From NCBI GenBank assembly GCA_951406725.2, contig OX597831.1, positions 65,348,001 to 65,412,000 of the forward strand: DNA of 64,000 bases. The letters run 5' to 3'. Shown in pieces: positions 40,835 through 60,577 of this stretch (the stretch's first letter is position 1; every line of letters starts with the position of its first letter). Source of the DNA: Octopus vulgaris (lineage: Eukaryota). The notes below the pieces were generated by a model, which saw only the letters and a program-made list of their open reading frames with translations, made no database searches and was not told the origin of the DNA. A program made the position numbers and the translations under genes.

Positions 40835-42135
40835 CATCATCATCATTGTTTAATGTCCGTTTTTCATGCTGGTATGGGTTGGACAGTTTGACAAGAGCTG
40901 GCCGGGCAGAAAACTGCACCAGACTTCTGTGTCTGTTTTGGTATGGATTTTTATGGCTGGATGCCCTTCCTAACATCGACCACCCTGCAGAATGGACTGA
41001 GTGCTCTTTACATGGCACCAGCACAGGTGAGGTCAGTTTTGGCTGCATATTTACAACTGGATGTTCTTCCAAATGCCAACCACTTTACAATGAGGACTGG
41101 ATGCTTTTTATGTGGCACCAGCACATGTATCTCTATTAGTAACCACCTACTTATAAACTTTCAACATATCTTGTTGCTATGACAGAAACATGATGTCATA
41201 GCCAAATCGTTCCAACAAAGCTCTCATCATTTATCGACTGTATACCCTGTTGTACATTTTCGACATTCATCATAGGGTTTCATTTTTGAAGAAATATGGC
41301 TGTGTGGTTAACAAGCTTGCCTTGTAACCAATTGGACCTTGAGCAAGTGTCTTCTACTATAGCCTTGAGTCATCCAAAGCCTTGTGAGTGGATTTGGTAG
41401 ATGGAAACTGAAAAAAAGTCTGTTGTATAATATATATATAACACCATCCGAGCGTGGCCGTTCACCAGCCTCGTCTGGCACCTGTGTCGGTGGCACATAA
41501 AAAACACCATCTGAGCGTGGCCGTTCGCCAGCCTCGTCTGGCACCTGTGTCGGTGGCACATAAAAAGCACCCACTATACTCACGATGTGGTTGTTGTTAG
41601 GAAGGGCATCCAGCTGTAGAAACACTGCCAGATCAGACTGGCCTGGTGCAGCCTTCGGGCTTCCCAGACCCCAGTTGAACCGTCCAACCCATTCTAGCAT
41701 GGAAAGCGGACGTTAAACGATGATGATGATGATGATGATGATATCATCATCATCATTGTTTAACGTCTGTCTTCCATGCTGGCATGGGTGGGACGGTTTG
41801 ACAGGAGCCGTCCAGGCAGGAACCTACACCAGACTTCTGTGACTGTTTTGGCCGGATTTTTACAGCTGGATGCCCTTCCTAACACCAACCACCCAGCAGA
41901 GTGGTATATGTATATATTTATGTGTGTGTGTGTGTGTGTTTGTCCCCCACCACTGTTTGTTTGTTTATGTTCCCATAACTTAGTGGTTCAGCAAAAAGTG
42001 ACTGATAGAATATGTGCCAGGCTTAAAAAAATTAAGTACTGACGTTGATTTATTCAATTGAAATTCTTCAAAGTGGTGCCCCAGCATGGCCATGGTCTAA
42101 TGACTGAAACAAAATAAAGGTAAAAGATAAAAGAT
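40835..42135. mobile_element. SINE cluster (RTE-tail and tRNA-head fragments, both orientations)
   Basis: Family motifs at 40835-41130 (-), 41295-41430 (+), 41440-41740 (+), 41745-41900 (-) and 41940-42135 (+). Confidence 0.8.
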
Positions 42136-48026: not shown

Positions 48027-48174
48027 CATTATGTGTGTGTCCAGCCCGCAGCTTCCTTTCTTTGTAAGGCCCTTGTGGCCAATTAAATGAATAAATGAAT
48101 AAAAGATACTTGTTCTCATCCCTAAAGCAGTAATATTAACAAATTAAAGTTTCTTGGTTTACTTTACCAAATAT

Positions 48175-48471
48175 TCTATTGTGTCTGGGGAGAGCCATTC
48201 TCTTTTAGTGCCTTAATTATTTAACACATTCACCGGTAAAATTTCCACTTATTTCTTATTTTTATTTTCTAAAATTTTCGTTGCATCTTGCAACCTTTTC
48301 AATAGTCTTGACTCTAGAAAATAAAAATAAGAAATAAGTGGAAATTTTACCGGTGAGTGTGTTAAATAATAAGGCACTAAAAGAGAATGACTCTCCCCAG
48401 ACACAACAGAATATGCTTCAACACACAAACTCATATAAAGAATCTTGCAAACCAAATCCAAAAACGAAATA
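48175..48471. mobile_element. Fold-back non-autonomous element (PLE pLTR-like) with 10-bp TSD
   Basis: ~100-bp inverted arms 48171-48271 and 48315-48414; TACCAAATAT at 48165-48174 and 48472-48481. Confidence 0.75.
48269..48305 (-). ncRNA. Minimal hammerhead-like motif, U3:A8 variant
   Basis: CUA-UUGAAAA-g-GUUGCA aga UGCAAC-GAA-AAUU-U-UAG. Confidence 0.55.
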
Positions 48472-48628
48472 TACCAAATATGCTAGTAGCAACTTTATTT
48501 CTACATCTTCATACGGCAGACATCCTGAGTAATTGTCTCCTGTCATTCTACTATATAGTTATTACCACTTCTTACCTTTTCCTAGTATTCACAACAAGAC
48601 TGGCTTTGTCATTTGAGAATTTAGTTAC

Positions 48629-48840
48629 GGAGATGTACTTGCATAGCGAGTGACTTGATCTGAGATCATGTGCTGGAACGAAAACAATTGCAGCGTGGAA
48701 GGTGTTTGTAAGCCATTTAAGAAACACACAAAAGCCTTCGATTCACTTCAACATTTAAATTTAATTTGTCAAAATATTTTCGTCGCTTTGAGACCGCGAC
48801 CTGTTCACAAAGTTTTGTCAGTGAACAGGTCGCGGTCTCA
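48629..48840. mobile_element. 212-bp non-autonomous element with inverted end and 11-bp TSD (PLE pLTR-like)
   Basis: TSD AATTTAGTTAC at 48618-48628 and 48841-48851; perfect 22-bp inverted repeat 48787-48808 / 48821-48842. Confidence 0.8.
48765..48808 (-). ncRNA. Minimal hammerhead-like motif, G3:C8 variant (stem I 5' strand displaced to the inverted arm)
   Basis: GUGAACA-g-GUCGC ggucucaaa GCGAC-GAA-AAUAUU-U-UGACAAA; the inverted arm shows UUUGUCA directly before GUGAACA. Confidence 0.55.
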
Positions 48841-49084
48841 AATTTAGTTACATTCTGTATAAATTTTTGGTGCAGTTTTTACTGCTAAAAGAGTCAAAGC
48901 TGGCCTAAGTCAAAGTAGCTGCTGGTGTACAAATTGGAGAGTTAATAATTTAGAATCTAATCACCAGTTCTTCCAGACAAAATTCTCCTCACCAGAGACC
49001 ATAAATTTAAAATTTGTCATTATCATGCCTACCTCTGGCTCTTTTGTTTCTAATTGTTCTCATTATTCATTTAGTCTTTTCTTT

Positions 49085-53686: not shown

Positions 53687-54302
53687 TAATGAAATTATTG
53701 TATATAGTCCTCAGGTGCACCACAACTTGTCAAAAAGTGTGCATAAAGCATATGCAGTAATGTACAAATGTCTGGAAAGCGAACAGTGTATGAGTCAGAT
53801 ACATGCTTGCGTGTGTATGGAGGGGAGAAAATCAGGTGTAGTGTTGGCGAATCTCAGAAAGCATGGAAGTTTTGAAGGATGCAGTGCTCCGACAACTAAC
53901 AACTGATGCCAGTAGTTTGTTCCATGCTTCAGCAACTCTTAGCGTGAAAAAATGTTTCCGAAAGTCATGGGAGCTGTGCTGTTTTCTGACTTTGTAAACA
54001 TGTCCACGGGTGTTAGACGGGTGGAGTTTGAAAAGGTGCTCAGAGTTATTGTTTGTAAGATGGTTAATAATTTTATGGGTGTCTGCCAAGTCAGCTGCCA
54101 GACGTCGGAGTTTCAATGTGTCCATGCCCAGGGAAGTAAGGCATTCAGAATATGGCAAATGCCTGATGGAGGATATTCTTTTGGTTGTACATCGCTGAAT
54201 GGTTTCCAGATGATTAATATTCTGGGCAAGATAGGGTTTCCAGACCGGTGATGCAAATTCCAGGTGAGGTCTTACTATATAAAGCAGCAGATAGATAGCC
54301 GG
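53687..54302 (-). mobile_element. 5'-truncated CR1-like LINE
   Basis: Antisense copy of 36297-37003; ORF 53832..54158 ends ...FFTLRVAEAWNKL. Confidence 0.9.
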
Positions 54303-55104
54303 TTGATGCTTGTTGGATTACTGTGGTTTTAGAAACAAGAGATTGGGCCAAAAATGTTTAGTGTAGAATTTTGCAAATGGGCTGAGGTAAAAGAAAGGAA
54401 GCTGTAATAACTGGAGAGCTGCATAGAATAACAGAAGCAATTATCCTCCTTGTTGTGTTGTTGTCATCGTAATCATCATCATTTAAAGTTTGTCTTTCAT
54501 GCTTGATTCTATAGGATTTGGTAAGTCACCGGAGGACTGCATGGTCTGCCGTGCCCTTGATAACTTAACCTCTTTATGTGGAGTACTAGTTGAGTCACTC
54601 ACAAGAATAAAGATTCTTCATGAGTGAGTGGAAGTATAGGAGAGAGGAAGGTGGCCTTTAGGTTAGTTGTTCAGCAAAAAAAAGAAAATCTGACCGGAGG
54701 CCGGGCTGATATCGAACTTACGATTGCGACTTGACAAAGGAAGGAACGAACAAGTGGCAGCCGGCAGGTGAGAGATAGAAAATAAAAAAAAAATGAATGA
54801 AAGGACAGGAACAGGTTACTTGTGGCAGAGATTCATGGTTAGCTTGCAGCATATTAGGGTGAGTATGAATAGTCAGGATGGCGCTGGAAAGGGATAACGG
54901 TGGTGGTGACAAGGAGTTAGCGCAAGTCCTCAAGGCACCTCAAGGTCCTCAAGGTCCTCAAGGTTAGTAGAAGAGAAAGTAGAGTCAGAAGATCAGAAAG
55001 GGTGTGTGTATGGAAGGTGCAGGGGAGTGTGGTGAGTGTGAGGAGGGTGGCTGGCATTTGGGCAGGATGAATACAGTGAATGGTGAACAAGGGTGGATAG
55101 GTGG

Positions 55105-56110
55105 TTATCTTTTACTTGTTTCGATCATTAGACTGTGGCCATGCTGGGGCACCACCTTGAAGAAATTTTAGTTGGATACATTGACCTCAGTACTTATTTT
55201 TTTTAAAGCCTGGTACTTATTCTATCAGTCTCTATTGCTGAACCACTTAGTTATGGGGACATAAATACACCAACATCAGTTGTCAAACAGTGGTGGGAGA
55301 CAGACACAATGACACACACACATGCATGCATGCATGCATACATGCACACATGCATGCACACACACATTTACATATACATATATATATTCACAATTTCATT
55401 TGGCTTGATGGCTCAAGCATGGCATATTGCTGAAGGTCTCAGTCATTTGTCATTGCCTCTGTGAGGGCCAAATGCTGGAAAGGTGCTTTTTACATGCCAC
55501 TGGCACAGGTGTCAGTTACATGACACCTGCATTGGCCACAACTATGAATTCATTTGACTTGACAGGCCTTCTTGGGCATAACATATCACCAAAGGTCTCA
55601 GTCACTAATCATTGCTTCTGTGAGGCCCAATGTTCAAAGATCATGCTTCACCACCTTGCCTCATGTCGTCCTAGGTCCCCTCTTCCACAGGTTCCCTTCA
55701 CAGTTAGAGAGTGGCACTTCTTTACACAGTTGCTCTCAGCCATATGCATCACATAATTATACTAGCACAGTTGTCTCTCTTGCACACCACATCTGATGCC
55801 GCTCATGCCCAACTTTCCTCTCAAGATGTTCACACTCTGTTGCACATGCACACTGACATTGCACATCCAGTGAAGCATGCTAGCTTAATTTCTTTGAAGC
55901 CTACGCATGTCCTCGGTGGTCACAGCCCGTGTTTCACTGCCATGTAGCATAGCTGTTTGCACACAGGCGCCATACAGTCTCCCTTTCACTCTGAGTGAGA
56001 GGCCCTTTGTTGCCATCTGACGTAGGAGCTCTCTGAACTTTGCCAGGTTTATTCTTATTCTTGTAGCTATGTTCTTGCAGCATTCACCTCCACTACTGAC
56101 TTGGTCACCT
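55105..56110 (-). mobile_element. SINE tail fragments plus decayed RTE LINE 3' region
   Basis: SINE tail 55105-55330; minus-strand AMLHGSET and KFRELL-like RTE motifs at 55900-56060. Confidence 0.6.
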
Positions 56111-56391
56111 AAATAACTACTTCTAGCTTACCTGCCTGGCATTTGGTGGAGTCTATTTTCTGTACATATTTAGTGCTTATTTTACCTGTGCACCTTCCAC
56201 ACACTAAAGCTATTTTCCCAGTTGACCTTCCTCTGATATTGCTACACCTCTTATGTGTCCATATTATTGGATGATTTAGCAGTTCACTAAGGTGTACACA
56301 TAAAACTAAAATAAACAGCAGTTTGTAATGTTTCACCAAAATTATAATTTCCCTTCTTGGTGAAACATTGCAAACTGCTGTTTATATTAAT

Positions 56392-59514: not shown

Positions 59515-59915
59515 AATGATGATCGTTGCCAGAGCGGCTAACTGGCTTCCGTGCCGGTGGCATGTAGGAGGCACCATTCGAGTGGGATCGTTATCAGCAT
59601 CGTCTTACTGGCACCTGTGCCGTTGGCATGTGTAAAATATTCGAGCGAGGTCATTGTCAGTACCACATGTCTGGCCCCCAAAATTCGAGCAAGGTTGTTG
59701 CCAGTACCGCCTGACTGGCCCCCGTGCCGGTGGCACGTAAAAGCACCCACTACACTCTCGGGGTGGTTGGCGTTAGGAAGGGCATCCAGCTGTAGAAATT
59801 CTGCCAGATCAAGACTGGAGCTTGGTGCAGCCATCTGGTTTGCCAGCCCACAGTCAAACCGTCCAACCCATGCTAGCATGGGAAGCGGACGTTAAACGAT
59901 GATGATGATGATGAT
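59515..59915 (+). mobile_element. RTE-tail SINE (subfamily of 32620-33115)
   Basis: Shared body and (GAT)n tail. Confidence 0.85.
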
Positions 59916-59961
59916 ATTCTGAGCTGAAACTTTAAATAAATATATATATATATATATATAT

Positions 59962-60365
59962 ACTGCATCGACAACAGATTGCATTCCCAGAATATAGAAT
60001 GATACCTTTTAGTGAGCACATTGAGAAATGCGCAAAGCAACTACTGCCACAATTTTTAATCTTCCCATTTTACCAATGTGCTTTCGGATCATCAACACAA
60101 ATGAGACTGAACAAGGAAACATTCTTCATTGAAAAGTACAAACCCAGACTCAACCATCCGAACATACTGACACAGAGAAATTAACAAGGAAATGGGAAAA
60201 AAATTTTTTAAGCGATTATCTCCCCTACACCGGAAAAAATCACTCACTACCTCCCCTTATTTAGAAATCTCCTGGAAATAAAAACAACGATAAATCCATG
60301 CAATATAAACATAACGTCACAAGAAATTTGAAAAGCTACACGCGAAACCGGTAATTTCTTTAAAA
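59962..60365 (+). mobile_element. Penelope-like element 3' end, second family
   Basis: FSEHIEKCA...FLIFPFYQ...RLNKETFFIEKYKPRLN resembles the GIY-YIG C-terminus; followed by a hammerhead motif. Confidence 0.75.
60321..60360 (+). ncRNA. Intact minimal type I hammerhead motif, U3:A8 variant
   Basis: AAGAAAU-UUGAAAA-GC uacac GC-GAA-ACCGGU-A-AUUUCUU: perfect 7-bp stem I, palindromic stem III, GUA triplet. Confidence 0.8.
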
Positions 60366-60577
60366 ATTTAAAAATTATGTCATTTTAAGGAAAGGAAAAA
60401 AAAAAAAAAAATTTTTCCAATATTCTCCAGACATTTTGACACAAATATATATATCTTTTAACATTTAAGCCTTCTGTCGTTTTTTCACACTTTACTATTT
60501 TCTTATATATTCACCCACGTGCTTTACCAAACAAACTTTCTTATCTATATATATATATATACACATATATATATATG

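Follow-up and report, generated by a model that had tools for sequence, protein, structure and literature searches.

A minimal U3:A8 hammerhead motif in the pLTR-like region of a truncated Penelope-like element of Octopus vulgaris, predicted to cut as a dimer

Is a 40-nt hammerhead motif at the 3' end of a truncated Penelope-like element (PLE) in the Octopus vulgaris genome an active ribozyme, a silent descendant of one, or a chance arrangement of letters? The motif is located in the window (the whole 64,000-nt stretch of contig OX597831.1 that was analyzed here) and it had been put forward as the best candidate for an active ribozyme in that stretch. The findings presented here indicated that it is very probably a type I hammerhead in the pLTR of a 5'-truncated PLE, with a predicted cut after A60353 only when two copies pair via ACCGGU.

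The motif and the insertion that carries it

The sequence and a descriptor scan agreed with most of the original prediction. As shown in Table 1, stem I (AAGAAAU/AUUUCUU) is perfect, with seven Watson-Crick pairs; stem II has 2 bp and is closed by G10.1-C11.1; the core has U3:A8; the triplet is GUA; and the motif is 40 nt long. Because the triplet is G60351-U60352-A60353, the predicted cut site is after A60353. The type I core positions (U4, G5, A6, N7, A9, G12, A13, A14, A15.1, U16.1, and H17, plus a Watson-Crick 3:8 pair) are all present, as are the flanking pairs 1.1-2.1, 10.1-11.1, and 15.1-16.1, and stem I is open-ended, as expected for type I. The palindrome that had been proposed as stem III is also present, but it does not form a proper stem in the monomer. 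Specifically, monomer stem III consists of just A15.1-U16.1 and C15.2-G16.2 around a 2-nt loop and is unpaired in the minimum free energy structure, so the stable stem III of a canonical monomer-active hammerhead is lacking. A 2-bp stem with a 2-nt loop suggested a dimer interface instead of a monomer stem, and the palindromic 15.2-16.2/loop 3 region would permit a dimeric helix III like that of PLE hammerheads with a short helix III.

Table 1. Coordinates of the features in the window
Feature	Positions	Strand	Evidence
(TA)n microsatellite, 5' junction of insertion	59940-59962	.	sequence; protein match begins at 59963
PLE endonuclease C-terminal fragment and stop	59963-60184	+	100% identity to P0001 residues 254-326; 72% to P0003
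pLTR-like non-coding 3' region	60185-60545	+	contigs of X9 and X15 cover to about 60509
(TA)n-rich tract, 3' junction	60546-60575	.	sequence
Type I hammerhead, 40 nt	60321-60360	+	descriptor scan and sequence
Stem I, 7 Watson-Crick pairs	60321-60327 / 60354-60360	+	sequence, descriptor scan
Core U3 U4 G5 A6 A7 A8 A9 (UUGAAAA, U3:A8)	60328-60334	+	sequence
Stem II, 2 bp: G60335-C60343 (G10.1-C11.1), C60336-G60342; 5-nt loop	60335-36/60342-43	+	
GAAA	60344-60347	+	sequence
Palindrome ACCGGU	60347-60352	+	sequence
Triplet G60351-U60352-A60353 (GUA); N17 = A	60351-60353	+	sequence
U3:A8 minimal hammerhead, U3 at 48302, N17 at 48272	within 48165-48485	-	post hoc descriptor
Hammerhead-like motif, G3:C8 core, G3 at 48808	48765-48842	-	post hoc descriptor

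Some of the results could be taken to mean that the motif is a chance resemblance in AT-rich DNA. A loose descriptor was satisfied in 53 of 100 dinucleotide shuffles of the window, the folding energy of the motif was ordinary (z = -0.37), and no Rfam hammerhead family was matched, either by the window as a whole or by 60150-60450. However, when a stem I of at least 6 bp and a paired 3:8 were demanded, 2 of 100 shuffles qualified, and the strict descriptor (paired 3:8 and stem I of at least 7 bp) was satisfied in none of the 100. The same class of motif is also found at the same place in related PLE loci (14 of 15), and covariation across those loci refuted chance resemblance, the probability of which we put close to nil. 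When both strands of the window were scanned with the first descriptor, 60321-60360 was the sole match. The exact motif pattern had no match in viral contigs.

The start of the motif was measured at 137 nt 3' of the ORF stop (which ends at 60184), in line with the early figure of about 140 nt, and the motif is in the sense-strand pLTR position 3' of a PLE RT-EN ORF. The upstream ORF was correctly taken for the end of a PLE endonuclease (EN). Specifically, 59963-60181 encodes 73 residues that are identical to the C-terminus of P0001, a same-family protein of 326 aa that derives from a 1.2-kb contig. Identity to P0003, a protein with both RT and EN, is 72%. P0001 and P0003 matched Pfam RVT_1 and GIY-YIG, with GIY-YIG under the curated cut-off in both; the 74-aa fragment alone had no Pfam match. 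An alignment revealed a CX4CxxC linker, a GIY-YIG-like core, and the CCHH residues in P0001. The linker (C189-X4-C194-X2-C197) was invariant in all 10 aligned proteins, and full-length relatives also showed GxKF and DKG motifs (alignment of 10 relatives). The arrangement of an EN+ PLE, in which RT precedes a C-terminal GIY-YIG EN with CCHH, was found via P0001 and P0003, the window having the last 73 aa only. Judged from these sequences and the criteria given by Craig et al. 2021 (PMC8557442), the element is an EN+ PLE with a C-terminal endonuclease and probably belongs to the Neptune/Nematis type, the trees having contained no named reference sequences. A fragment from the same PLE protein family (P0022, protein cluster 7) was filed under a bacterial symbiont MAG and is probably host DNA contamination.

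The insertion is about 0.58 kb long, is 5' truncated inside the endonuclease, and is flanked by (TA)n tracts; its 3' boundary is between about 60510 and 60545, and (TA)n resumes at 60546. The repeats flanking it resemble octopus SINEs. Linker-bearing PLEs have a target bias for (TA)n, according to PMC8557442. Neither a second copy of the pLTR nor any other PLE coding piece was found elsewhere in the window. A non-LTR retrozyme would have tandem non-coding repeats with a hammerhead in each; what we found was a single copy attached to EN coding sequence.

Copies of the family and related loci

To place the motif in its family, contigs from four of the 24 public runs listed were aligned to 59900-60520. 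The DNA runs X9 and X15, which come from two organisms, yielded 1511 and 1307 aligned contigs, respectively. The family has multiple copies, and copies in the DNA runs of both organisms share the motif, as the original prediction needed them to. In the ORF, 13 sites varied at 5% or more in either run; 11 of these were third codon positions and 10 were synonymous. The synonymous excess (10 of 13; binomial p = 0.002 versus the transition background) is consistent with subfamilies selected for coding. Within 60321-60360, no alternative letter was listed at 5% or more. This 40-nt invariance alone is not significant because the flanking non-coding sequence, with 5 variable sites in 242 nt, predicts about 0.8 variable sites in 40 nt.

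Record 6 of run X1 (a contig) had four unlisted differences across 60321-60366, and one X1 contig spanned 59970-60381 without a difference; that it is RNA is a guess, and, since contigs do not reveal ends, it bears on neither cleavage nor expression. More informative are the divergent sequences, which aligned over the hammerhead only and had loose ends at 60321/60322 on one side and 60352/60360/60366 on the other. The contigs that ended at 60352 (nine in X9 and eight in X15) carried C17, and their 3' strand was one base shorter. We also weighed a splice donor on the cut site (G|GUAAUU, 60351) paired with an acceptor at about 60430 but dismissed it; the joint was not listed in a check that skipped the repeat stretch 60382-60424, and the C17 subfamily does not have the donor.

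A metagenome scan produced 27 related loci, and 15 of these matched through the EN end (best segments 36-58% identical). The other 12 (L013, L015, and L018-L027) matched short of the EN end and were excluded. Among the 15 loci, three pairs are nearly identical (L001/L017, L003/L011, and L014/L016), and the descriptor used for the relatives was adjusted after inspection of L005, L008, and L011. When up to 650 nt was searched, 14 of the 15 loci had a sense-strand hammerhead whose stem III is palindromic, located 96-542 nt 3' of the endonuclease; the sole exception has a flank of 174 nt only. An antisense hammerhead was present in 1 of the 15 loci, and the shuffle mean was 0.005 loci. An inverted pLTR copy was found in none of the 14 related loci, and no relatives were found in viral or prokaryotic collections.

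The 3:8 pair was C:G in 12 of the 14 motifs and U:A in two. Stems I and II varied freely, with stem II ranging from 1 to 5 bp, and the palindromes were CCGG in nine motifs and CGCG, CG, CATG, CTAG, or CTTAAG in others. The extra nucleotide between A9 and G10.1 is absent from L006, L007, L009, and L010, as it is from the window motif. N17 was never G (0 of 14); L009 (L009:1877) independently combines U3 with A17, and L008 has C17. Protein trees placed the window's family among carriers of C3:G8 (98/95), and a topology uniting all three U3:A8 carriers in one clade was rejected (AU p = 0.018; 12 rows, tested after the first tree was seen). These two results indicated that the 3:8 pair likely flipped more than once.

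Two further observations were made at the related loci. L017:2489 (minus strand) is a second, different hammerhead that faces the first tail to tail and has a 2-bp stem II, a CCGG palindrome, and a GUA triplet. In addition, of 12 regions counted from the EN end to the hammerhead, 7 contained one to four CRE-like TGACGT/ACGTCA words (shuffle means 0.02-0.27), namely, those of the window (60314-60320), L001, L002, L003, L007, L010, and L014. These words are possibly pLTR promoter elements.

Predicted cleavage and other motifs in the window

Two 40-mers were predicted to cofold into a double hammerhead of -14.1 kcal/mol, versus -4.0 kcal/mol per monomer. The shared helix III was 6 bp long, and its intermolecular C15.2-G16.2 pair had a P of 0.997. 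A U3-A17 pair was also predicted (P of 0.73 for the monomer, 0.71 for the dimer), and the closed dimer with this pair was predicted to be lower in energy than the active form by 1.4 kcal/mol. U3 and A17 may lengthen stem I by one pair, as C3-G17 does. When the motif was folded within its native context (181 nt), stem I was outcompeted (pairing P of about 0.03). Because the copy is solitary, U3-A17 pairing is predicted, and stem I is outcompeted, we read the motif as an ordinary pLTR hammerhead in an insertion that was dead on arrival. We saw no sign of a host function for this copy.

By analogy with known PLE biology, two hammerheads in a pLTR-ORF-pLTR or tandem parent transcript would swap strands to form the 6-bp shared helix III; no parent with two pLTRs appeared among the sequences covered here. 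Cleavage of the paired hammerheads would be slow and probably assisted by the PLE protein, and U3-A17 pairing is predicted to lower its rate again. If reverse transcription, starting from the 3' end, halted early, it would leave a fragment of 0.58 kb within a (TA)n tract. The solitary copy likely rides along passively, and cutting would be possible for it only in trans with another family transcript. Any cleavage would take place in tandem parent transcripts, if at all, and would probably depend on dimerization and on protein.

A stronger sense of "active ribozyme" would be efficient monomer cleavage at the locus, with a host or read-through transcript as the substrate. A perfect 7-bp stem I and an intact core are compatible with this idea; U3:A8 is an accepted natural covariation in hammerheads, and natural hammerheads with a two-base-pair stem II and U3-A8 cores exist (PMC3088659). 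However, stem III has 2 bp and a 2-nt loop, stem I is not predicted in the native context, the window has no second copy, and the one min-HHR monomer described as tested in PMC4209133 showed no cleavage. Efficient monomer cleavage therefore seemed very unlikely, and we retained the view that the motif is predicted to cut only as a dimer.

A more serious question is whether the dimer cuts either. The motif could be a genuine hammerhead descendant that is catalytically silent, or nearly so, in this family and is kept as a pLTR cis-element (for protein binding or dimerization) or by recent descent. In that case, U3-A17 would extend stem I like C3-G17, which inhibits minimal hammerheads (PMC3884650), and the predicted U3-A17 pairing and the more stable closed dimer agree with this, as does the C17 that a related subfamily has instead (loose ends after 60352). 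Published work points the same way: min-HHRs cut weakly and only as dimers (PMC4209133; review PMC6765202), and a lizard PLE hammerhead, which requires the element's protein, was dispensable for in vitro insertion when mutated, with no RNA ends matching the cut site in the public reads described (PMC11167929). In contrast, the remaining core positions of the window motif are all intact, L009 arrived at U3 with A17 independently, and nearest-neighbour models disregard the tertiary U3:A8 pair. Moreover, the covariation of 3:8 and the lack of G at N17 in the relatives point to selection for catalysis. Considering both sides, we regard a silent motif as the less likely reading and continue to favor a hammerhead with dimer-dependent predicted cleavage.

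The window contains two more PLE-type hammerhead-like motifs, on the minus strand at about 48.3 and 48.8 kb. Both matched a post hoc descriptor (no stem I demand, stem II of at least 5 bp) that was satisfied in 1 of 200 shuffles versus two matches in the window. The 60321-60360 motif, put forward originally as the best candidate, is the most complete of the three. The 48302 motif has an extra G, a 6-bp stem II, a 3-bp stem I, and an AAUU palindrome, and the two arms of a 101-bp inverted repeat (48171-48271 / 48315-48414) flank it. One arm of the repeat has an extension of about 57 nt, and the arm at 48271 starts exactly at N1.1. A 10-bp direct repeat at 48165 and 48472 may be a target-site duplication. 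Taken together, 48165-48485 is an inverted-pLTR PLE derivative that matches the inverted-pLTR insertions described in PMC3846280. The 48271 breakpoint could mark cut RNA, but a 3-nt microhomology explains the junction equally well.

The 48808 motif has an extra G, a 5-bp stem II, and an AAUAUU palindrome and is split across a 22-bp perfect inverted repeat. The 5' strand of its stem I is absent on its own strand and survives on the inverted arm, with seven Watson-Crick pairs to the 3' strand. No natural G3-C8 core was found in the literature searched; Lunse et al., outside that coverage, may have some. Elsewhere in the window, 41677-41798 is a long hairpin in which two inverted SINE-like ends surround (GAT)n/(ATC)n, and it gave spurious Rfam microRNA matches. 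The open frames at 53832-54317 and 55885-56127 (minus strand) resemble C-terminal fragments of CR1/RTE-type LINE ORF2.

These observations could be joined into a bolder proposal: PLE hammerheads flip 3:8 repeatedly (C:G; U:A in at least two lineages; G:C at 48.8 kb), the U3/A17 stem locks itself and is opened only by dimerization plus the PLE protein, and the inverted pLTR at 48.3 kb is a fossil of ribozyme-cut, reverse-transcribed RNA, which would mean in vivo cleavage. We consider this combination improbable.

Comparison with known hammerheads and PLEs

The window motif is a known dimer-type PLE hammerhead and not a new ribozyme class. Cervera & De la Pena 2014 (PMC4209133) had already published the U3-A8 core, a palindromic helix III, and PLEs that are truncated at the 5' end and keep a solo 3' motif. 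Their account gives U3-A8 for S. mansoni motifs numbering about 1,300, with the UUGAAAA core in one family, and their Table S1 is full of solo 3' motifs on truncated PLEs of this kind. Like the short-helix-III PLE hammerheads of that study (U3-A8 S. mansoni Cercyon), the window motif is type I, is in the sense orientation, and is 3' of the RT-EN ORF. It is also solo on a 5'-truncated copy, has G10.1-C11.1 and a palindromic 15.2-16.2/loop 3, and shares its UUGAAAA core with S. mansoni family 4 (their Fig. S3).

There are differences from that set, as far as its published text and figures were compared. The stem II of the window motif is 2 bp, whereas the text of Fig. S3 gives a minimum of 3 bp. 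Its stem I, at 7 bp, exceeds theirs in length, position N17 is occupied by A, and the element that carries it has a Zn-finger linker like that of Neptune/Nematis. The window motif has no extra A9/G10.1 nucleotide, a property shared with two entries in Fig. S3. With neither this nucleotide nor a long helix II, the motif departs from the strict min-HHR consensus of Cervera 2014, but it fits the small-palindromic-helix-III variants in the same paper. The PLE hammerheads of Lunse, Weinberg & Breaker (RNA Biol 14:1499), compared by way of the summary in PMC6765202, are similar in their diminished palindromic stem III, PLE association, and predicted dimer cleavage.

PAc (Poseidon of Anolis carolinensis; PMC11167929) likewise has a pLTR hammerhead in an EN+ PLE and relies on the 3:8 pair. 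It differs in having C3:G8 and a hammerhead that overlaps the ORF start, whereas no ORF start was seen after the window motif, and it belongs to the Poseidon clade, which is without a linker Zn finger. In protein, there is a likeness to the Neptune/Nematis EN+ PLEs (PMC8557442), with a C-terminal GIY-YIG EN with CCHH, a CX2-5CxxC linker, and (TA)n insertion, as well as the GxKF and DKG found in relatives of the window's family.

A recent Octopus repeat annotation describes active Penelope families, and the words ribozyme and hammerhead are absent from the text available from it (PMC13282606). Two other accounts (bioRxiv 10.64898/2026.07.22.740005 and PMC6155905) left the interpretation as it was. 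No such motif was reported in the literature covered on hammerheads in cephalopods or octopus, and Lunse et al., outside that coverage, may have some. The present case adds a young, multi-copy, linker-type PLE family with a hammerhead that is among the smallest of its kind (2-bp stem II, U3:A8, and A17). Whether PLE hammerheads cut in vivo and need protein is still an open question in the published accounts (PMC11167929 and PMC8557442). Because natural A17 and C17 subfamilies coexist, this family provides a tidy natural pair for asking about both.
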